Below are positions 33,118-64,000 of a stretch of DNA of 64,000 nt, in pieces. This DNA is from Planctomycetota bacterium (GTDB lineage Bacteria; Planctomycetota; JAJSAM01; JAJVHW01). The number at the start of each line of letters is the position of its first letter. Within the stretch, counting starts at the first letter, position 1. A model generated the notes under the pieces. It saw nothing but the letters and a program-made list of their open reading frames with translations, did no database searches and had not been told where the DNA came from. The stretch covers positions 480,001 through 544,000 of the forward strand of contig CBDFJG010000004.1 in the NCBI GenBank assembly GCA_965248445.1, in the 5' to 3' direction. The position numbers and the translations under genes were made by a program.

Positions 33118-34566
33118 ATGCGGTGGATCACCCGGCTGACTCTCGCGTTGATCTCTCTGATCCTGATCTCGCCGGTCGCGGCACAAGAGCAGGGCGGCGC
33201 GATCGCGTGGAGCAAGGACCTGCCTACGGCCATGGAGGCCGCCAAGAAGGCGGAGCGTCTTCTCATGGTCTGCATCAACGCGAAGAGCGTGGACGGAGAG
33301 ATGGAGGAGCCCGCCGCGAAGGGGCTCCGCGACGTCGTCTACAAGGACAAGCGCGTCGTCGAGCGGTCGCGGGACTTCGTCTGCGTCTTCCTCACGGCCA
33401 AAGGCTCGTCCAAGGAGTACGACGTACTCCGGAAGCTCGGCATCGACGGCGACATCACGTCGCCGCAGCACGTCTTCGTCAGCGCGGACGGCACGCGCAT
33501 CGTGCACCGCCGCGCCTACTGGGTGTTCGGCAAGGGAGAGCGCGCCGTCGAGGTACTCCTCGAGATGATGACGAAGGCCGAAGCGGCGGCAAAGATCATG
33601 CCCGCGCCCGAACCCGAACCCGAGGGTGACGGTCCGCCGAAGAGCGACAGTGAGCGGGCCACGTGGATCGCGGGACTGATCGAACAAGTCGCGGATCTCG
33701 ACAAGCGTTACGCAGCGGCCAGGCAGCTCGTCGCCGCTGACAACGACGGCGACTGCACAGGCCCGTTGATCGCGCTGCTCCCCGAGTACAAGAAGGACAA
33801 GAGCGCATTGCGCGCCATCGTCCGCGCGCTGGGCCGGGATGGGCTCGAAGCGGCGGCACTGCCGATCGCCGACCTCCTCAAGCACAAGGAGGACACGGTC
33901 CGTGCGAACGCCGCCGTCAGCCTCGAGTACATCGGCAGCCACGACAAGAAGGTCGTCGCAGCGCTCAAGAGGCTCGCGGACAAGGAGAAGGACGCCGCGA
34001 TCGCGAACCACGCGTTCCGCGCCCTCGGCCGCTGCGGCACGGACGACTCCAAGATCCGTACGTTCCTGCTCAAGAAGGCAACGAGCGGCAAGAGTGAGTA
34101 CGCCACATACGGCCCGTGCATCGCCCTCGCGTACTTCGAGGAGGACGAGAAGGCGATGCGCGGGGTCGAGAAGATGCTGAAGCAGATCGGCGTGCCCGGC
34201 GGCCGCAGCGGGACGAACGTGGTGAAGCGCGGCCTCGTCTCCTGGACGCTGGCCTCCATCGGCGACGTGGACAGCGGCGACTTCGTCCGCGAGGAACTGA
34301 TCGCCGGCCTGGAGCACGTGACGGCGTTCTGGGTGGAGGGACTCCGTGGCTTCTGGGACCTGGTCGCGAAGGTCTGCGAGGGCGAAAGGGAGTCACTGCC
34401 GGCCGTCGTGGCGGGCGTGGGCGGTTTCGTCCGGTTCGCCAAGGGCGCCAACATGGAGCGGTACGGCGGCGAGGAGGCACACCTCATGGACGAGGCACGC
34501 AAGAACCGGGATGCGACAGACTTCAAGCCCAAGGGCGAGGACATCCTGAACGTCGACGACGAGTAG
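33118..34566 (+). CDS. Secreted thioredoxin-like + HEAT-repeat protein
   Basis: Signal peptide; IAWSKDLPTAMEAAK; VRANAAVSLE. Confidence 0.75.
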   Translation: MRWITRLTLALISLILISPVAAQEQGGAIAWSKDLPTAMEAAKKAERLLMVCINAKSVDGEMEEPAAKGLRDVVYKDKRVVERSRDFVCVFLTAKGSSKEYDVLRKLGIDGDITSPQHVFVSADGTRIVHRRAYWVFGKGERAVEVLLEMMTKAEAAAKIMPAPEPEPEGDGPPKSDSERATWIAGLIEQVADLDKRYAAARQLVAADNDGDCTGPLIALLPEYKKDKSALRAIVRALGRDGLEAAALPIADLLKHKEDTVRANAAVSLEYIGSHDKKVVAALKRLADKEKDAAIANHAFRALGRCGTDDSKIRTFLLKKATSGKSEYATYGPCIALAYFEEDEKAMRGVEKMLKQIGVPGGRSGTNVVKRGLVSWTLASIGDVDSGDFVREELIAGLEHVTAFWVEGLRGFWDLVAKVCEGERESLPAVVAGVGGFVRFAKGANMERYGGEEAHLMDEARKNRDATDFKPKGEDILNVDDE

Positions 34567-50442: not shown

Positions 50443-50720
50443 CGCGGAGCGATCGTCCCGAGACGTCCGGCTCGAGGACCCACTCCGAGGTGCTGTGCGC
50501 GGTCGGGGGGCACTTCAATCGTCCTCGTCGAGGCCTTCGATCGTCACCGTCTCTCCGCGTAGCCGCACGAGCAGGGAACGACCCGGCTCGAAGCGAAGAG
50601 TCACTTCGACGCTCGCCGCTCCGCCGTTGATTCGCACGGTCCGCTCTGTGGCCTCGGCCTGACGGGCGTCGCCGACTTCCATGGAATAACGGATGTGCCT
50701 CAGACTCCGGCCACACGTCG

Positions 50721-50763
50721 TCCGTCGCGTTCAGGCTGCGCCGCGCGTACCTCGCTCCGCAAG
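50721..50763 (+). repeat. 43-bp direct repeat shared with 61524-61566
   Basis: TCCGTCGCGTTCAGGCTGCGCCGCGCGT[A/G]CCTCGCTCCG[C/T]AAG, 41/43 identical. Confidence 0.9.
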
Positions 50764-55279: not shown

Positions 55280-55465
55280 GACAGTCGGCTCCGGATGTGA
55301 GTGAAATGCTCCGCGTCACGCGTGTGGAGACGTAGGAGGAATGCTATCCATCGCGTCGCGCGCCTGGAACTGCGCTGTTCGCGACGGCCGCGGTGACGCT
55401 GCCGGCCGCTCGCGGCCGCGGCCAACCCGAGCGTCCCGGCAACGCGCGCTCGGCGTCCCCTCCGC

Positions 55466-55713
55466 AAGGCAAACATGAGGCACGCAACGCGAGACCGCGG
55501 TCTCATCATCGCGGCGCAACGACTGCCGTAAACCACCACCCCGACTGCATCTCCGGTTCGAGGTCGACCCCCAGCCCATCCGCGATTCTATTGATGTAGT
55601 TGGTGCGCCGCGAGCCACACTGCATCCAACACGATCCAACGCGCTCCAGCCTGGACCCCTCCGCAGCCGACTCCATGTGCGTTTCCTTAAGGCACACGTA
55701 GGGCACACACGGC
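55466..55713 (-). repeat. att-like site 1: arm + gene 3' fragment + arm
   Basis: Arm-like 55686-55713; NYINRIADGLGVDLEPEM coding segment 55548-55601; degenerate arm 55466-55486. Confidence 0.75.
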
Positions 55714-55886
55714 GTTAGCGCAGATAGGGCGTTGCGCGCCCCGCTCCGGAGCGTTCACTGAGTGCGCATGGCGTCGAATCGTACCGACGGTGACGAGCCT
55801 TGCGCACTCGGAGGTCTAGCCGTTGATCCGCGGCATCCGGGAGCGGATACTCGCGCTTGAGGTTTCCGTGCGAAAGGGGAATGCAC

Positions 55887-56978
55887 ATGACGATGCGAAC
55901 AACCGTGACCGCCGCCTTGGTGGTGCTTCTGACGGCACCGGCGCTGGCCGACACGATCCGCGTGCCGGGCGACCACGCCACGATTCAGGCGGCCGTGGAT
56001 GCCGCCGGCAACGGCGACGAGATCCAGATCAGGGGCGGCACGTACGCGGAGGCCATCGTCGTGATGGACACGGCCGACCTCACGATCATCGGCAAGCGCG
56101 GCGCGACCATCGAACCGCCTGGCAGCGACGAAGGGATCACCGCGCAGAACTGCGTCGGTCTCGTCATCAAGGGACTGCGGTTCGAGGGCGGAGGACGCGG
56201 GATCTTGGTGTCGGGGTGCGACAACGCGCGCATCGAGAAGTGCCGATCGAGCGACAACCAGAACGGGGGGTTCGAGATCCGAGCCTCGCAGAACGTGACC
56301 GTCACGAAGTGCAGGGTCGAGGGGGGCCAGGGCGAGGGAATCAAGTTCGGTGACGGCAACCCGGACCAACAGGTCACTGGCGGTGAGGTCTCGAAGTGCC
56401 GCGTGCGCGACGTCAGCGGGGATGGATTCCGCATCAATGCCAACGGTTCCACGATCTCGAAGTGCAGGTGCGACGGTGCCGAGAGCGGATTCGATGTCGA
56501 GGATGCGAGCCAGGGAGTCACGGTCGAGAAGTGCCGCTCGTTCGACGTGTCCGACGAGGCGTTCAAGACCAACGCCCCCGGGACCAACTTCGTCAAGTGC
56601 CTCGCGAAAGACGCCGACGAGGAGGGCTACGACGTCGAGGCCGACATGTGCGAAGTCGAGAAGTGCAAGGCGATCGACTGTCGCCGCGGAATAGAGTTCG
56701 AGGGAGTGACGAGCGGCATGGCCGCGAACTGCAAGCTGATCAAGTGCCGGGAGGTCGGCGTCGCCCTGTTCGGAGCAACCGGGGTCACGGTCGAGGGCTG
56801 CCTCTCGAAGAAGGCCGGTGACTTCGGGTTCCACGTGCGCGACGACTCGAACACCAACACCCTTACGAAGAACAAGGGCGTCAAGAACGGCGAGGCGGAT
56901 CTGCGAGACGAGAACGGCGAAGGATCGAACACGTACACGGACAACAAGTTCAAGGTCGAGGACTTCTCGAGTCCCTAA
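55887..56978 (+). CDS. Secreted right-handed parallel beta-helix protein
   Basis: Signal peptide; IRVPGDHATIQAAVDAA; periodic ..KC.. repeats. Confidence 0.88.
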   Translation: MTMRTTVTAALVVLLTAPALADTIRVPGDHATIQAAVDAAGNGDEIQIRGGTYAEAIVVMDTADLTIIGKRGATIEPPGSDEGITAQNCVGLVIKGLRFEGGGRGILVSGCDNARIEKCRSSDNQNGGFEIRASQNVTVTKCRVEGGQGEGIKFGDGNPDQQVTGGEVSKCRVRDVSGDGFRINANGSTISKCRCDGAESGFDVEDASQGVTVEKCRSFDVSDEAFKTNAPGTNFVKCLAKDADEEGYDVEADMCEVEKCKAIDCRRGIEFEGVTSGMAANCKLIKCREVGVALFGATGVTVEGCLSKKAGDFGFHVRDDSNTNTLTKNKGVKNGEADLRDENGEGSNTYTDNKFKVEDFSSP

Positions 56979-57054
56979 CAAGGGCGAGTGAGCTCCGGGC
57001 GCTCCTCCGGGTCGCTACTCAGCGCGGCTCGTCCCCCTCACGAGAGGAGCCTCC

Positions 57055-57296
57055 ATGCCCCGTTCCCACGGCAGACCTGCTGCGAACCGCCATCGGCGCG
57101 CGAGCAGCGCAACGACTGACCCGCAGGGACATCTCCTTGCGCGATCTCGGCCGCTGCAGCGTCGCGGAACTGACAAGCACGTACGGCCTCAGTGAGCGGG
57201 CCGCCGAGAGGGCAGTCGCCGTCTGCGAGCTCGCCCGCCGACACGCTCAGGAACCGCTTCGACGGGGAATGCCATTCCGGTCAAGCGGCGACGTCT
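57055..57296 (+). pseudogene. radC: RadC N-terminal fragment
   Basis: RBS and ATG, frameshift in a C run, then SLRDLGRCSVAEL...GLSERAAERAVAVCELARR...FRSSGDV; truncated before the JAB domain. Confidence 0.65.
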
Positions 57297-57318
57297 CCGG
57301 GCGGCCCGTCGAGACTAA

Positions 57319-57499
57319 CTACTGGTCCTGCAACATCTCCGGCTCGAGGTCGACGCCCAATCCGTCGGCGATGCGGTTGATGTAGTTGGTGCGCCCCGAG
57401 CCCCACTGCATCCCACACGACCCAACACCAGCGAGCCTGGCCCCCACTGGAGCCAACGCGAAGTGCGTTCTCTTAAGGCACACATAGGGCACACACGGC
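57319..57499 (-). repeat. att-like site 2: arm + gene 3' fragment
   Basis: 57334-57499 aligns without length difference to 55548-55713; arm at 57472-57499. Confidence 0.8.
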
Positions 57500-57635
57500 C
57501 GCGGCATCGACGCGGCGGATGGAGCAGGCCGCGACTCGCCCGGGGGACGGCCCACGTGCTTTGCGGCGGCGGGGTGACGCGGAGGGGCGGACGCGATTGG
57601 AGTGCGCCGCGCGGCGGCTGTCGGCGGGCGACGGG

Positions 57636-57727
57636 CGTACGGGGTCAGGACAAGGTCGGGAGCGTTCGTGGCGGTACCGCTCCGCACTCGGCGGTCCGAA
57701 CCCCCGAACTCTGTCCTGACTCCGTAC
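57636..57727. repeat. REPIN/MITE-like imperfect inverted repeat
   Basis: CGTACGGGGTCAGGACA...TGTCCTGACTCCGTACG, with an internal GCGGTACCGC palindrome. Confidence 0.65.
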
Positions 57728-58099
57728 GACCGGACCGCGCAACGGCTACATCTTGCCCCCGGGTCCTCGTCGACGTTCACGCACCTAACTCCCCCCCTCG
57801 TTGCCGCCTCCATCGAGACGCCTCATCTCTTGTTCTTGCCGCCCTTCCGGTTGCCGAAGTTGACGGCCGATGCCCATGGATGGCGTCAACGTCACCGTTG
57901 CGATCGACGGGATCGGCGAGGCCACGCCCGTCAACGTAGAGCTACGGCGCGCCGGTGTACCCTGGGCGCCGAAGGCCAACGCCGACACGGAAAGGGCAGC
58001 CTGATGCGGACGACTCAATCTTCAGAAGTCCGTATTCACACCGCCCGGAGGCGTTCTCGCGGCGGGATCGTACCCTCAGGGGGGGGATAGACTCCCCCC

Positions 58100-59224
58100 A
58101 TGAGTCAGCGTCCGCCCGCCCCCGAGTTCTCATCCGCCGGCGTGCTCGGGCTCGGGACGGCGTTGCCGGCGTTCCTGGTCGACCAGAGCGCGGCGGCGCG
58201 AGCCGTGGGGCGCCTGACAGGGCGACCGCGTCGTGTCGCCCGCACGTTCGCGCTGGCCGGCGTCGCCACCCGCTACGCCTGTGTCGCCGACTTCGACCCT
58301 GATCGGCCGGGGCCGCTCGCGCGCCTCCCGGCGCCCTCCACCGCCGAGCGCATGACGATCTTCGCGCGCGAAGCGCCCCTCCTCGCGGCTGTTGCCGCGC
58401 GGAGGGCCCTTGACTCCGCGGGACTGTCCGGCGACGCCATCGGGCACCTCGTCGTCGTCACCTGCACCGGCTTCTCCGCACCCGGCGTCGACCTCGCGCT
58501 GGTCGATGCGCTCGGGCTGCCGCCGGATGTGGACCGCACCGTGGTCGGATTCATGGGCTGCCACGGTGCGTTCAACGGGCTCCGCGCCGCGCGGGGTGCG
58601 GTAGCCGCCACAGGCCGCGCAGCCCTCGTCGTCTGCGTCGAGCTCGGAAGCCTGCACGTGCAGCCGGCATCGTCGCGCGAGGCGCTCGTGTCCGCGTCGT
58701 TGTTCGGCGACGGGGCGGCAGCGGTCGTCGTGGGAGCCGACGCCGGTCGCGGCGCCCTGCTGCGGCTGACGGGCGGAGCGAGCCACCTGGCCGAGGGCAC
58801 GCGCGACGCGATGTCCTGGTCGATCGGCCCGAACGGATTCGTCATGTCGCTCGCTCCCACGCTGCCGGCCGCCGTGGCGAGCGCCGTGCGTCTGCTCGCC
58901 GACCGGCTCGGTATCGACGGCGTCGATCCGGCCGGGCTCTGCGTGCACCCCGGCGGCCCAGCCGTCCTGGATCGCGTCGAGGATGCGCTCGGTCTGCAAC
59001 CCGGCGCGCTCGACGTGTCGCGCGACGCGCTGCGGGAGCACGGCAACCTCTCCAGCGCCACGATCCTGTTCGTGCTCGCCCGCGTGCTGCCGGAGCTCAC
59101 CGCAGGTGCCCCCGGGCTCCTTCTCGGCTTCGGTCCCGGGCTGACCGTCGAAGGGTTGGGATTCGTACGGGGCACGCGTCCGTTCGTCCACCGGCGCGTC
59201 GCGATCCCCGTTGCGATCGGATGA
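58100..59224 (+). CDS. Type III polyketide synthase
   Basis: TCTG, FMGCHG (Cys), LFGDGAAA, HPGG (His), GNLSS (Asn), FGPG. Confidence 0.95.
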   Translation: MSQRPPAPEFSSAGVLGLGTALPAFLVDQSAAARAVGRLTGRPRRVARTFALAGVATRYACVADFDPDRPGPLARLPAPSTAERMTIFAREAPLLAAVAARRALDSAGLSGDAIGHLVVVTCTGFSAPGVDLALVDALGLPPDVDRTVVGFMGCHGAFNGLRAARGAVAATGRAALVVCVELGSLHVQPASSREALVSASLFGDGAAAVVVGADAGRGALLRLTGGASHLAEGTRDAMSWSIGPNGFVMSLAPTLPAAVASAVRLLADRLGIDGVDPAGLCVHPGGPAVLDRVEDALGLQPGALDVSRDALREHGNLSSATILFVLARVLPELTAGAPGLLLGFGPGLTVEGLGFVRGTRPFVHRRVAIPVAIG

Positions 59225-59949
59225 TCGCGCGCCTGCTGCCGCCCCCGCTCGCTACGCGAAGCGCGGGGCCCGAGCTCATGGACGACCTCGACGGCATCGG
59301 GGGCGCGGAACTCGCGGTTACCCTCCGCGAGCTGGAGCAGATCAACCGCTGGCTCGGCGGGCACGGCACCACGCGCCGCGCGCTCGATCTCCTTGCCGCG
59401 CGCGTGGACCTCGACACACGACGCCCTCTCCGCGCACTCGACGTCGGTGGCGGGTCGGGCGACGCGGTTCCCGTGATCATCGACTGGGCTACTCGACGGG
59501 GTCTCTCGCTCGAGGTCGTCACCGTCGACCTGCATCCGGAGACGACGCGTGCCGCCGCGGAGAGACTTGCCAACGTCGCCGTGGCGCGGGCCATCTGCGG
59601 CGACGCGTTCGCGTACGAAGACGCCTCATTCGACATTGTGCATGCTTCCCTGTTCCTGCACCACTTCGACGGCGACGACGCGGCACGCGCACTCTCGGAG
59701 ATGCGCCGCATCGCGCGACTCGGCGTCGTCCTGAACGACCTGCGGCGCGAGGCGCTTCCGTGGCTGCTGGTGCGGGCGCTCACGGCGGGCTTCTCGCAGA
59801 ACCGGCTCATCCGCGCGGATGCGCCGCACTCCGTCGCGCGCGGATTCCGTCGCGCGGACTGGGACGCCCTCGGCCCCGCCGCGGGGCTCGAGTTGACGCT
59901 GCAACGGACGTGGGCGTTCCGCTGGGCAATCGCGGGTGTGTGCACATGA
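59221..59949 (+). CDS. SAM-dependent methyltransferase
   Basis: ELMDD, INRWLGG, LDVGGGSGD, SLFLHHF, NDLRR. Confidence 0.9.
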   Translation: MIARLLPPPLATRSAGPELMDDLDGIGGAELAVTLRELEQINRWLGGHGTTRRALDLLAARVDLDTRRPLRALDVGGGSGDAVPVIIDWATRRGLSLEVVTVDLHPETTRAAAERLANVAVARAICGDAFAYEDASFDIVHASLFLHHFDGDDAARALSEMRRIARLGVVLNDLRREALPWLLVRALTAGFSQNRLIRADAPHSVARGFRRADWDALGPAAGLELTLQRTWAFRWAIAGVCT

Positions 59950-61115
59950 GCACGCAGCGGGCTCCACGCGTGGTCGTGATCGGCGGCGGGCCGGGCGGCT
60001 TGTCGGCGGCGACGACACTCGCGCGCGGCGGCGCGGACGTCACGGTCCTTGAGGCCGGGAACTTCCCGCGACACCGCGTGTGCGGTGAGTTCCTCTCTCC
60101 CGAAGCGCTTCCGCTGCTACGCGATCTCGGCGTCGCCGCAGATGTCCTCGCACCCGCGCCGGTGCTGTCGCATGTGCGAGTGTCCGTCGCGCGCGACGGA
60201 CGAGAGAGCGCACGTCTCGAGGCGGCGCTCCCGGTCGCCGGACGTGGCGTGTCGCGACACGAGCTCGACGCCGCGCTCGCGGCCGCGGCGCGACGCGCGG
60301 GTGCTGTGGTGCGCGAAGGCTCGCGCGTCCACGCGATCGAGGCGGTGGGCCCGTTGCTCCACGTGCACGCCGCACGAGGTGACATCGAGGCCGAGGCCGC
60401 GGTGCTCGCGACAGGGAGGCTCCGACGCCCCCCGGGCGCGCGCACACCCCGTAACGCGAACGCGCTCCGTCACCTGGGCGTGAAGGTCCACGTGCGGGGA
60501 CTCGCGCTCGGCGACGGGACGCAGCTGCACTTCGTGGAGGGAGCCTACGTGGGCCTGAACGACGTCGTCTCCGGCGGAGAGCGGTTGACGAACGTGTGCG
60601 CACTCTTGACGCACCGCGCCCTCGCGGAAGCGCCGCGCGACCCGCTCGCGGTGCTTGAGTGGCTGGCGGCAGCGAGCCCGGGCTTCGCACGCCACTGGCG
60701 CGCGGCGCGCGTGGACGCAACGACTCTTGCCACGGCCGCACACTTCGGATTCGACGCACGCGGAGCGGTCTCGCGGATCGGCGACGCGCCCGTCGTCGCG
60801 GTCGGTGACGCCGCCGTCGCCGTCACGCCGTTGATCGGCGACGGGCAGGCCGCCGCGCTGGCCAACGGACGCGACGCGGCGCAGGCGCTGTTGGCCGGCA
60901 CGGAAGAGGCTCCGACCGTCGCCTACCGCCGTCGTCATGCGCTCTCCATGGGTCTGCGGCTGCGGGCCGGGCGCGCGCTCCAGAGCGTTCTGGTGCGACC
61001 CCGGGCTGCCGGCCTGCTGGTCGGGACCGCAGCGCGCCTGACACCGTTGGTGCGGTCGCTCTTCGTGGTGACGCGCGGACCGCTTCCGCTCCCCGTAGCT
61101 CCAAACGCTCGGTAG
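59946..61115 (+). CDS. FAD-dependent oxidoreductase
   Basis: VIGGGPGG, FPRHRVCGEFLS, ATGR, VGDAA...PLIGDG. Confidence 0.9.
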   Translation: MSTQRAPRVVVIGGGPGGLSAATTLARGGADVTVLEAGNFPRHRVCGEFLSPEALPLLRDLGVAADVLAPAPVLSHVRVSVARDGRESARLEAALPVAGRGVSRHELDAALAAAARRAGAVVREGSRVHAIEAVGPLLHVHAARGDIEAEAAVLATGRLRRPPGARTPRNANALRHLGVKVHVRGLALGDGTQLHFVEGAYVGLNDVVSGGERLTNVCALLTHRALAEAPRDPLAVLEWLAAASPGFARHWRAARVDATTLATAAHFGFDARGAVSRIGDAPVVAVGDAAVAVTPLIGDGQAAALANGRDAAQALLAGTEEAPTVAYRRRHALSMGLRLRAGRALQSVLVRPRAAGLLVGTAARLTPLVRSLFVVTRGPLPLPVAPNAR

Positions 61116-61233
61116 TACCCCTGGCCGCGCGGCGTCCCTGGCAGCCGGACGACACACACCGCGTCGGCGGCATTCGGGCGTTGTGCTGCGTTCGCGAGCC
61201 TCGCTACGGTGCGTCCGAGAGAGGTACACGCAC

Positions 61234-61443
61234 ATGAGCGATCAGCCGGACGAGCACACAGAGGACCCCGCCGGCGACGACGCGCCCACGAGCCCGCCGC
61301 ACCGCCACGAGGCCGAGACGGTCATGGGGTCGATCCGCGCGCTGCATGGCGCGGACGCCGGGATGCGGATCGATCTCGAGGGCGCGGACGAAGCCGGCGT
61401 CAGTCCGCAGCGCGAGGCGCCGACAGGCGAGCGCTATGCCTAG
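61234..61443 (+). CDS. Short acidic ORF, possibly a truncated gene
   Basis: GAGG RBS; ends GERYA* about 80 bp before the repeat. Confidence 0.35.
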   Translation: MSDQPDEHTEDPAGDDAPTSPPHRHEAETVMGSIRALHGADAGMRIDLEGADEAGVSPQREAPTGERYA

Positions 61444-61523
61444 GAAGCGACTCTCCTGCACGGCGAACGCAACCTGCCCACCGTTCTGCGCGACTCCTGA
61501 ACGACAGAGTTCGCCGTACATCA

Positions 61524-61699
61524 TCCGTCGCGTTCAGGCTGCGCCGCGCGTGCCTCGCTCCGTAAGGCACACATAGGGCACACAAGACGGGTCTCGAGTC
61601 GCACTGCCCGGAGCCGGCCGAGGACGTAACTCGTTACTCCGCCTTCATCTCCGGCTCGAGGTCGACTCCGAGTCCGTCCGCTATTCTGTTAATGTACTC
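61524..61699 (-). repeat. att-like site 3: gene 3' fragment + arm
   Basis: YINRIADGLGVDLEPEMKAE* at 61634-61696; arm at 61564-61584. Confidence 0.8.
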
Positions 61700-61791
61700 C
61701 GCTCCCGAGATGATGGCCCTCCTCGGCGTGCGCGACTTCGTGGCTGGACAAGGTCATGAATCTCGATCGCTTCGACCTTGCCTGATCCAGG

Positions 61792-62322
61792 CTACTCCGC
61801 GAGCGCGGCGAGGATCGCCTTGAGGAAGTTCGGCAGATCGTCCGGGACGCGCGCCGTGATGATCGGCCCGTCCACGGTGCACGACTGATCCGGCACGTAG
61901 ATGCCGCCCGCGTTGATCACGTCGTCCTTGACCGCGAAGTAACACCCGACGCGTCGACCGCGGATGCTCTCGGGCACGCTGCACAGCATCCACGGGCCGT
62001 GGCAGATCGCCGCGAGCACGCGGCCGGCCGCGTGCGCGTCGCGGACGAGCTGGATCATCTCCGGGCAACGGCGCATGTGGTCGGGCGCGTAGCCGCCCGG
62101 GATGACCACACAGTCGTAGTCCGCCCCGCTCACCTCCGCGGCCGCGTGCGTGCTCTTGGCCGGGTAGCCCTTCTTGCTCTCGTATGTCTCGCCGACCGCA
62201 GGGCCGACCACGTGCACCTCCGCACCCGCTTCGATGAGGCGTAGGCGCGGGTAGTGGAGCTCCAGGTCCTCGTAGAACCTCTCGACGAGGATGGCGACCT
62301 TCTTGCCCTCGAGATTGCTCAT
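61792..62322 (-). CDS. PfpI/DJ-1 family protein
   Basis: YEDLELHYP, IPGGYAPD, AICHGPW, ARVPDDLP. Confidence 0.93.
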   Translation of the reverse strand: MSNLEGKKVAILVERFYEDLELHYPRLRLIEAGAEVHVVGPAVGETYESKKGYPAKSTHAAAEVSGADYDCVVIPGGYAPDHMRRCPEMIQLVRDAHAAGRVLAAICHGPWMLCSVPESIRGRRVGCYFAVKDDVINAGGIYVPDQSCTVDGPIITARVPDDLPNFLKAILAALAE

Positions 62323-62390
62323 GGGGCCGTCACGGTACCGCAGACCCGGCGCGGTCTGCGTCGCTATCCTGCGTGCGCGGGAGGTGAGCG

Positions 62391-62746
62391 GTGTCGATCC
62401 AGAGCGTGAGTGCCGTGACCTTCGCGGTGTCCGACATGGCGCGCTCGGTGCGCTTCTACGGCAGGCTCGGCCTGACGTTGGCCTACGGAGGAGAACAGGC
62501 GTCCTTCACCAGCTTCCACGCAGGCGAATCGTTCGTGAATCTCATCGAGGCGAAGGATTACGAGGGACGCTGGTGGGGACGGACCATCTTCCGGGTCGAC
62601 GACGCGGATGCGCACTACCGGTTGCAGCTCGAAGCCGGTCTGCGCCCAGACGCGCCCCGCGACGCCCCCTGGGGCGACGCTACTTTCACATCAGCGACCC
62701 CGACGGCCACGAGCTCAGCTTCGCCGAACTGCTGCCCCGCGGCTGA
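62391..62746 (+). pseudogene. VOC/glyoxalase protein with a frameshift near 62676
   Basis: VSDMARSVRFY...PRDAPWG continues as RYFHISDPDGHELSFA in another frame. Confidence 0.8.
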
Positions 62747-62811
62747 CGCGCGCATGGGCAACGAGCCGGGTTCATGCACGAACGCCGCGCTGCGAGCACC
62801 ATACTCGTGGC

Positions 62812-63450
62812 ATGCCGGCCCACTCGGAACGGGAGCTCGCGGCGGTGCAGGCCGCGCTCCAGCGCTGGGACATGCTGCTCGTGACCGATCGGCAGCTGCC
62901 CGCGGTGACGACGATCGTGGCCGGAGAACCCGTGCGCGGCTCGTGGTGGGGTCACGCCAAGGGTCACGCGATCTACGACCTCCTGCGCGTGCTGTACGAC
63001 GATCCGGACGTATTCCCGGTGAAGCTCGTGCACGGCAAGATCACCCTCGTGCGGCGGCCGCTGTTCGCCGCGCTCCGGGCAGTCGCCGAGGCGGACGACC
63101 CCTGGCAGACTGACGGGCTCTCACCGCTCGCACTCTGGATGCGTGACGCGGTCGCGCGGGAAGGGCGCGTTCGCGTCGACGCGCTCTCCCCACCGGCGCG
63201 GCTCGAGGGCGACACGAAGAAGGCCGCGCGGGAACTCGAGCAGCGTCTCCTCGTCGCCGCCGGACAGATCCACACGGAGTCGGGCCACCACGTGCGCGTG
63301 CTCGAGCCGCTCGCCGACGCGTTCGATCGCGCCGGTGCACCGCGCGGGGCAATGACGCCGCAGCAGGGGCGCCTGCGCTCCGTGGGCGCAGAGTGGGCGA
63401 TCGAGACAGGCGCGGCCACCCGCTTCCCCTGGATGAGCCGACGAGCCTGA
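62812..63450 (+). CDS. Hypothetical protein (possibly AlkZ-like winged helix)
   Basis: GSWWGH, KLVHGKITLV, ELEQRLLV, HTESGHH. Confidence 0.55.
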   Translation: MPAHSERELAAVQAALQRWDMLLVTDRQLPAVTTIVAGEPVRGSWWGHAKGHAIYDLLRVLYDDPDVFPVKLVHGKITLVRRPLFAALRAVAEADDPWQTDGLSPLALWMRDAVAREGRVRVDALSPPARLEGDTKKAARELEQRLLVAAGQIHTESGHHVRVLEPLADAFDRAGAPRGAMTPQQGRLRSVGAEWAIETGAATRFPWMSRRA

Positions 63451-63495
63451 CCGACCAACGGCGGACGTTGTGGGCGTTGGGCCATGACCCGGAGA

Positions 63496-63999
63496 CTACA
63501 CCTCTCGGCGCCGGTAGATGATCCGAGCCGTGCGACCGAACGTGACGTAGTTCCATGCCCATTGGAAGAGCACCAGGACGCGGTTGGAGAAGGTGACCAG
63601 CCAGATCAGGTGGACGAAGAGCCAGGCGAGCCATGCGGGAAAGCCGCGTAGACGGATCCACCTCAGGTCGGCGACGCCAGCCATGCGACCGATCGCGGCC
63701 ATGTCGCCCAGGTCGCGGTACCGGAAGCTCGGTGCTGGCAGGGCGCGCAGGCGCCTGCGCATCACACGCGCCGCGTGTCTCCCCTGCTGGATCGCGACGG
63801 GCGCCACTCCCGGGAGAGGTGTTCCGTCTGCACCGACGCAGCGCGCCAGGTCTCCGAGTACGAACACCTCGGGGTGACTCGCGAGCGTCAGATCGGGCTC
63901 GACGGGGACACGGCCGAGTGGATCGACGTCAGCGCCTGCTGCGGCAGCGAGGGCGGCCCCGAGCGGCGACGCGCAGACGCCCGCGGCCCAGAGAACGGT
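63496..63999 (-). CDS. ndh: Type II NADH dehydrogenase family protein (5'-partial)
   Basis: VLWAAGV, VFVLGDLA, PGVAPVAIQQG, FRYRDLGDMAAIGR, AWLAWLFVHL. Confidence 0.88.
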   Translation of the reverse strand, partial: TVLWAAGVCASPLGAALAAAAGADVDPLGRVPVEPDLTLASHPEVFVLGDLARCVGADGTPLPGVAPVAIQQGRHAARVMRRRLRALPAPSFRYRDLGDMAAIGRMAGVADLRWIRLRGFPAWLAWLFVHLIWLVTFSNRVLVLFQWAWNYVTFGRTARIIYRRREV

Positions 64000-64000
64000 G

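Follow-up and report, generated by a model that had tools for sequence, protein, structure and literature searches.

Copies of a TIGR01926 gene end delimit integrase-less units in an uncultured Planctomycetota class: probable accretion and decay at a protein-gene attachment site

Gene-end islands and the TIGR01926 locus

Cis-mobilizable elements (CIMEs) have been defined, and integration, decay and accretion of elements at target-gene ends described, in previous work (PMC5704250). Here we analyze a locus of this kind in a bacterium of the Planctomycetota (JAJSAM01; JAJVHW01; assembly GCA_965248445.1, named G000 below), where copies of the 3' end of a protein gene recur in tandem beside arm motifs of the attachment (att) site type. 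The stretch of DNA under study, referred to as the window, spans 64,000 nt of contig CBDFJG010000004.1 (G000:C4:480001-544000), and the intact gene, probably an AhpD-like selenoprotein gene of the TIGR01926 family, is found just past it. Rows of units that lack an integrase, accreted in tandem at a protein-gene 3' end, are an architecture already known; the new content, as read from the sequence, would be the TIGR01926 target, a mapped overlap with its arms and a candidate integrase family. With moderate confidence we favor a CIME-like process of accretion at the end of the TIGR01926 gene, in which elements decay into units without an integrase that would then move in cis with a visiting element.

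As in the published outline of CIMEs, tandem att-bounded units stand at a gene 3' end, mostly without integration or transfer genes, and have been shaped by accretion and deletion. Repeated att sites are present, some of them partly deleted, and the units lack integration and transfer genes. The locus differs in its target and phylum, in having no conjugation module nearby and no intact autonomous element at the site across the 8 family genomes, and in the coding tail of about 60 nt past the crossover, which is synonymously different between units. An accretion case related to ICESt1 reportedly occupies the 3' end of fda. At ssrA of Dehalococcoides, tandem islands lie past one single-copy gene and are bounded by copies of its end, 15 of them without integration modules (PMC3146451). 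Our locus shares the several tandem islands downstream of a single-copy gene and their delimitation by gene-end copies; however, that account gives a tmRNA target, the serine recombinase DsiB, a 20-bp repeat and many islands that keep their module, whereas a protein gene and arms of tyrosine-integrase type are found here.

The signature used by Islander consists of a restored gene plus a displaced fragment, with an integrase required for each island (PMC4383910). In common with such gene-restoring tyrosine-integrase islands, an intact gene and a displaced 3' fragment mark the ends, and attP restores the gene. However, Islander covers tRNA and tmRNA targets and, as it also needs one integrase per island, would miss the protein-gene array at TIGR01926. 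Streptococcal integration targets at protein-gene 3' ends include rplL, rpsI, lysS, rpmG and guaA, and TIGR01926 is not among the targets noted from that source (PMC4701971). The tycheposon island model of Prochlorococcus (10.1101/2020.12.28.424599) similarly places transient elements at the proximal target and lets degenerate elements and flanking host DNA accumulate distally, but its outline involves tRNA targets and hallmark integration and replication modules. Neither a tRNA in the window or the next 36 kb nor an integration or replication module in the units was found, so that membership in this class, to which the initial annotation had likened the array, was not upheld and CIME-type accretion and decay is closer. 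In integrons, recombination sites recur in series with small cargo units between them, alongside an adjacent intI and attC hairpins. The same annotation had drawn a likeness to them and the row of small cargo units between repeated sites is indeed shared, but the comparison fails because there is no adjacent intact integrase, intI included, and no covarying hairpin like that of attC; cargo runs in both orientations, is often multi-gene, and the sites have arms of double-stranded type. Among open-access titles and abstract starts we found no TIGR01926 target and no such Planctomycetota arrays described, and island databases (TIGER/Islander) may already hold the site.

Displaced gene tails, their parent gene and the att sites

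Three minus-strand segments of the window (55548-55598, 57334-57384 and 61646-61696, copies 1 to 3) encode one 17-residue peptide, identical at 17/17 positions in each, and their pairwise differences (8, 8 and 9 of 51 nt) change no amino acid; both the shared peptide and the purely synonymous differences had been reported in the initial annotation. A fourth displaced copy with 16/17 residues lies beyond the window (C4:545706), between copy 3 and the parent gene, and tail copies differ by 4-10 of 51 nt. The displaced tail of copy 1 (site D, 55548..55602, minus strand) consists of a CAACTAC junction (55596-55602) and 17 codons of the parent 3' end. That of copy 2 (site C, 57334..57388, minus strand) keeps CAACTAC intact, is without a P' arm and is nearly identical to the tail of the parent gene in the relative G005. 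In copy 3 (site B, 61646..61696, minus strand) the left, or P, side has been deleted together with the first 4 bases of the 7-bp junction, and GGAGTAC replaces CAACTAC. Counted from the parent gene outward, the four intervals measure 2923, 4010, 4312 and 1786 bp.

The arm motif was confirmed at the offsets annotated before: at 55689-55708 and 57475-57494, equally distant from copies 1 and 2 (85-88 bp depending on the counting point), at 61564-61583, 62 bp from copy 3, and in degenerate form at 55466-55485, 62 bp from copy 1. Allowing for as many as 3 mismatches, the arm occurs 5 times in the 5.4-Mb genome, every time within the array, while a reversed control pattern gives 0 matches, which argues against chance. 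The P-side arm of copy 1 (55603..55713, minus strand), a direct-repeat arm (55688-55708) plus a conserved non-coding spacer, matches the P-side profile at E 5e-27 and belongs to a gap-free alignment of 9 sites from 5 genomes; that of copy 2 (57389..57498, minus strand; arm at 57474-57494) scores E 1e-27. On the P' side, copy 1 (55426..55547, minus strand) carries the degenerate arm and shows 87% identity over 150 nt to a stretch in G005, and copy 3 (61526..61645, minus strand) carries a new stop codon, a (C/T)AANNNNTTACG motif and a perfect arm (61563-61583).

Unitigs break within copy 1 and within the fourth copy, as an artefact from repeats or strain mixing would have it. Nevertheless, unitigs from two runs of one sample, possibly the source sample and so not independent, match the 20-kb region with 0 differences and single unitigs cross copies 2 and 3 and the parent junction, with copy 1 and the fourth copy at unitig overlaps; runs X1 and X2 gave short pieces only. 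Considering also that the copies are distinct in sequence and that the same layout occurs in 6 other genomes, we attach a negligible probability to an artefact.

The intact parent gene, which was to be sought, is located 4.6 kb past the window (C4:548567-549154). With its TGA read as selenocysteine it gives one 195-aa protein with a CMD domain that passes TIGR01926 (122.9 bits versus a cut-off of 81.8), in agreement with the earlier suggestion that the peptide resembles the C-terminus of AhpD/CMD peroxidase-related proteins. An in-frame TGA within a CxxU motif is present in 16/20 homologous loci, the other 4 being those that the search pattern did not match, and selA was found in the genome. 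TIGR01926 has been tabulated as a CxxU selenoprotein family (PMC13188914), and the parent is probably an AhpD-like TIGR01926 gene encoding a selenoprotein. In a check for a selenocysteine insertion sequence (SECIS), the hairpin after the TGA starts 5 nt in and has a z-score of -0.26 over 92 nt, indistinguishable from shuffles. The genes upstream of the parent are common to G000, G003, G005 and G006.

The arrangement recurs in relatives, whose records are titled Planctomycetota, and the tail pattern was matched in 39/401 phylum genomes. At least two copies of the pattern are present in 7/8 family genomes, as against 1/31 matching genomes outside the family, and the one out-of-family copy checked was a full gene; displaced copies were found in 7/8 family genomes. 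We aligned 21 sites from the 8 family genomes, namely 8 parent genes and 13 displaced copies (5 sites in G000); a 14th displaced copy, in G002, was found later and stands outside the alignment. Similarity to the parent gene ends at the 7-bp CAACTAC, a sharp breakpoint common to several genera: xxTACTT lies left of the junction in 8/8 parents and 0/13 displaced copies, whereas CAACTAC itself is exact in 7/8 parents and 11/13 displaced copies (18/21 sites). The P side including the arm is gap-free over 167 columns in 9/13 displaced copies (5 genomes). The remaining 4/13 comprise two internal deletions, the lost side of window copy 3 and one variant arm in G003 that is also seen in the G002 copy, both at 84-bp spacing. 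On the P' side the arm stands at +63 in five sites, and a (C/T)AANNNNTTA motif at +15 in four; the latter also occurs after a tRNA-Thr beside a related integrase, and we take it to resemble an IHF site. Two HU/IHF-family genes are encoded in the genome.

Differences among displaced tails fall on codon positions 1/2/3 in the numbers 142/75/439, whereas the P side shows no codon-position bias in any frame. The pN/pS ratio rises from 0.07 for the parent genes to 0.16 for the displaced copies, which fits tails that were constrained while in use and decayed afterwards. Expressed small ORFs, or ordinary gene duplication, might also explain synonymous-only differences in the window, the more so as open frames of 66 and 164 aa run through copies 1 and 2, respectively. 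However, these frames have no Pfam match and their upstream part no codon periodicity, which led us to discard expressed small ORFs; moreover, displaced copies in relatives do carry amino-acid changes, and all copies break at one base. We therefore find an origin in small ORFs or duplication scarcely credible.

Based on the sequences, the att sites can be assigned to the lambda type, with a short overlap and direct-repeat arms at fixed distance on both sides, and CAACTAC is likely the strand-exchange overlap. The gene-side TACTT on the left is also the core repeat at a second target, rho, described below. The earlier view of the fragments as att-type scars carrying a replacement 3' end is thus supported by the parent gene, by the breakpoint shared across genera and by an arm type that stands beside tyrosine integrases. 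A different machinery, host XerC/XerD or an integron-type hairpin mechanism, could be invoked given that no integrase lies in cis and that two top PF00589 matches in G000 look like XerC/XerD. Against this, the sites have direct-repeat arms 62 and 88 bp from the core, and arms at such distances are the layout of arm-binding integrases. The core resembles dif weakly (by inspection against the dif consensus), and in the consensus fold of 9 P sides the covariation term is +0.09 kcal/mol (one strand), on which basis an attC-like hairpin was rejected. Such a mechanism is, in our opinion, very improbable. Scanning a genome collection returned 9 loci; 5 of them, from records titled Planctomycetota, are true sites, and the remaining 4 match other genes by chance. 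In viral contigs there were 0 matches to the arm pattern, 0 to the back-translated tail and none to the integrase queries, and 1 chance match to the arm-plus-core pattern.

The mechanism that we favor may be outlined as follows. The 3' end of the TIGR01926 gene would serve as attB for a family of tyrosine-integrase elements, with crossover at or within the 7-bp CAACTAC. The attP would contain TGTGCC-N5-TGTGCC direct-repeat arms on both sides, together with about 60 nt restoring the 17 conserved codons at the gene end along with a short variable tail and a stop. An incoming circle bearing P arm, CAACTAC, replacement tail and P' arm would recombine with the gene end. This would restore the gene, giving it other synonymous codons and a new tail of 3-7 residues, and would leave the old tail as the far boundary. 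Repeated insertion at the restored end would build the row, and deletions would then trim or fuse units. Since each insertion displaces the prior tail outward, the array would be ordered from the newest unit, beside the gene, to the oldest. Integrase-bearing elements would be transient or decayed, and loss of their integrase and replication genes would leave att-bounded units, mobile only when a visiting element supplies an integrase. The displaced tails would look protein-constrained because each once was, or was built as, a working gene end.

Candidate integrases and the array at rho

In the genome, PF00589 is matched 22 times and PF00239 7 times, always outside the array and its surroundings, with the nearest PF00589 match about 146 kb away; 8/8 family genomes have PF00589 matches, none of them on a relative's array-bearing contig. 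When the ORFs of the array were scanned, no match to PF00589, PF00239, or any recombinase, relaxase or type IV secretion system family was obtained. Two near-identical but distant integrase pairs exist in G000 (C4:388552-389610/1949479-1950537 and C3:1085966-1087018/1205454-1206506), the former within a 3.07-kb repeat of 99.9% identity. The initial annotation had called for an integrase adjacent to the arms. No intact one was found in any array, and a profile of one integrase clade, run on 14 array stretches, gave a single match, a frameshifted N-terminal relic in the G004 array (E 7e-15).

Full-length metagenomic relatives of this relic were found at 64-81% identity (candidate family P0002-P0027). 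In three of them, the N-terminal extension agrees with a translation of the P' arm from the G002 and G004 sites at 5/7 and 6/10 residues; 0/5000 random genome windows scored as high, although the match was noticed post hoc. This suggests that in the relatives' contigs the integrase may start at the arm, as it does at rho. A close intact relative of the relic was not found in 17 class genomes, and the phage collection holds only distant integrases (top about 27% identity). A scan of metagenomes for the arm returned at least 123 stretches in 122 loci, mostly elements of other bacteria, and among the matches listed none had the parent gene or the P side, which is not a test of absence. Among the listed matches, a tyrosine recombinase ORF ends within 300 bp of a near-identical arm motif in 38/79 loci; as these belong to other bacteria, they show only the kind of motif. 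In unrelated contigs with mostly gut titles (L120-L241), integrase elements of 8-9 kb were bounded on either side by a TGTGCC-N5-TGTGCCTTA arm motif.

A second array of like build was found at the 3' end of rho (L112:5089-17200 in G005, L114:1793-7455 in G006, G000:C3:252186-257450 and G000:C4:1441650). In G005 a TGTGCC-type arm comes after the rho end, then an intact integrase and Rep_trans; further out, arm-and-core sites bound units in which a partial Rep copy or small genes occur but no integrase. The TGTGCC arms stand about 10 bp further from the core here than at the TIGR01926 gene. In G000 the rho arms are of the GTGTCCCA type, and the partner site and integrase are on another contig, which may represent either a split element or a rearrangement. 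The same integrase clade also occurs after rho in G004, at two other protein-gene ends and at several tRNAs. At the former two, G000:C1:213500-214107 and L247 (G004), the integrase lies directly past the stop codon; in G000 an IS-like insertion has truncated it, TGTGCC-type arms precede it, and no duplicate of its target-gene end was found in that genome. Also observed were repeats of about 30 bp that end in CCGGTCTCGGTATG and form a dispersed family, with some copies in inverted pairs and others between the rho-type units of C3 (G000:C4 497039, 498160, 721818, 862047, 862139, 1185844, 1187080, 1190787 and others). Taken together, three indirect lines, namely the rho array, the G004 relic and the relatives of that relic, point to one clade of tyrosine integrases of about 380 aa as the putative source of the activity at TIGR01926.

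Enclosed DNA, mobility and significance

Two clean units uphold part of the proposal that the sites delimit integrase-less cassettes. One lies beside the parent gene and carries a kinase/FGE gene; the other spans 1.8 kb from copy 2 to copy 1, its cargo being a single beta-helix protein gene (55857..56978, plus strand; PF13229, E 3e-31). The other intervals are mosaics, and the claim that every interval is a discrete cassette does not hold, since the DNA between copies 3 and 2 combines a deletion relic with native genes and the interval past copy 3 has lost its P side. In the former, a type III polyketide synthase (PKS), a methyltransferase and an FAD oxidoreductase (58100..61115, plus strand; Pfam) form a cluster that is single-copy in 5/7 relatives, at 52-57% identity and on other contigs, with neighbors shared in two. 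This points to host-type DNA enclosed in the array, and we rejected the cluster as a shared mobile cassette. Beside it, a P-arm remnant is followed by the first codons of a kinase-WD40 gene (61149..61443, plus strand). The stretch 61149-61401 matches the P end of a 4.1-kb kinase-WD40 unit of G006 (82% nt over 259 nt; 63% aa over 86 aa), where a 1266-aa WD40-repeat kinase occupies the whole unit, and the window keeps the gene start only. At 57600-58040 lies a mosaic of non-coding DNA; it contains a long imperfect palindrome, and 80 bp of it match (78%) the sequence past a tRNA-fragment/integrase site in G006:C45.

At the deletion junction of copy 3 there is a scrap of a catalase-peroxidase-like gene 3' end (61727..61785, plus strand), with 83-84% identity to gene ends in G000:C2 and G003:C4, which we take for katG from its C-terminal sequence. 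The interval toward the fourth copy (61792..64000) contains pfpI, a frameshifted glyoxalase, an ORF of unknown function and an NDH-2-like gene; past the window follow hicA, the fourth copy, the kinase/FGE gene and the parent gene. pfpI was found in 0/7 relatives at E 1e-25, and the glyoxalase-family ORF (62391-62746) has an apparent frameshift near its 3' end. Further out, a 49-bp copy (92%) of the sequence directly past the P' arm of copy 3 is found at 50715..50763 (minus strand) and is probably the remnant of a more distal, decayed unit. A HEAT-repeat gene (33118-34563), whose homologue lies about 17 kb downstream of the G006 parent, may lie at the outer limit of the variable region. Among the cargo that relatives carry are kinases, Schlafen/AlbA regulators, toxin-antitoxin genes, a TOTE primase-helicase and NAD-salvage genes. 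In G008 (L048:16049-19978) a kinase like the kinase/FGE cargo adjoins a reverse-transcriptase-like ORF, possibly a diversity-generating retroelement by sequence impression.

How the units came to lack an integrase is where accretion by decay meets its main competitor, namely purpose-built integrase-less cassettes (arm-cargo-arm) that excise, circulate and integrate with a helper integrase acting in trans, which would amount to an economy of cassettes like that of integrons but with lambda-type att sites in a protein gene. Several observations weigh against our preferred explanation, and some of them favor the competitor. The gene-proximal unit is without an integrase in 6/6 genomes that have both ends on one contig (2.1-10.5 kb), whereas simple decay would predict some intact newest elements. 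Three of these units, of 2.1-2.9 kb, are compact and contain one main gene each, and the arms on both sides are near-perfect in G000 and G006. The P' similarity of G002 and G004 stops where related integrases would start. No intact integrase tied to the TIGR01926 target was found in the DNA read, so the cognate enzyme has to be inferred. The G004 relic sits about 950 bp inside its unit, away from the arm, and may stem from another element; the arm match of its relatives concerns the variant arm of G002 and G004 rather than the exact arm of the window, and related arms serve other targets. The assignment of this clade to the TIGR01926 target is accordingly a putative one. In addition, the right-hand core-type site matches the left only weakly, as an inverted repeat. 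Finally, the search of reads for circle junctions gave no excision, circle or skip joint of this strain among 15 joints listed of 94, where contigs drop rare variants. One joint spaced like copies 1 and 2 was set aside: it comes from one contig with 10 other letters and a depth of 39 versus about 10 for the G000 genome, and was read as the same gene in another organism.

The kinase/FGE gene also speaks for cassettes at first sight, because it follows the P' arm in a second genus (G005) at 85% aa identity, as compared with 68-79% for four core genes. Its four-fold-site divergence of 0.40 nonetheless equals that of the core genes (0.35-0.43), so that recent transfer is not demonstrated. The integrase relic in G004 and the deletion relics reveal that decay does occur, and the rho array, with similar arms, displays it stepwise. 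The lack of circles among the joints listed and of a close intact integrase in the class genomes counts against circulating cassettes too. Weighing both sides, we regard purpose-built cassettes moved in trans as a doubtful alternative, to be kept in mind nonetheless. Its broader form, a family-wide system with no resident integrase, whose units circulate between genera and are integrated in trans by a clade retargeted from tRNAs to several protein-gene 3' ends, seems to us unlikely, and so does the related idea that kinases, beta-helix proteins, toxin-antitoxin and defence-like genes are the cargo of such a system. If it were true, each insertion would rewrite the C-terminal tail and the codons of a selenoprotein, and the array would be a dated record of former gene ends. 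Under accretion and decay at the TIGR01926 gene, the explanation we prefer, the parent gene, the breakpoint, the arm spacing, the codon-position bias, the recurrence in 7/8 genomes and the relics are observations, while the identity of the overlap, the order of insertion, the integrase involved and any present mobility are best taken as deductions from them.

Arrays such as this one escape island finders whose search depends on a tRNA fragment or on one integrase per island. The locus offers, for an uncultured class of Planctomycetota, a precise attB with a putative 7-bp overlap, an arm layout and a candidate integrase family, and one integrase clade sits at rho and at two other protein-gene ends. 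If the units move in trans, they would provide a natural test case for the spread of integrase-less islands; if they are decayed elements, the TIGR01926 array would be a clean further example of accretion.

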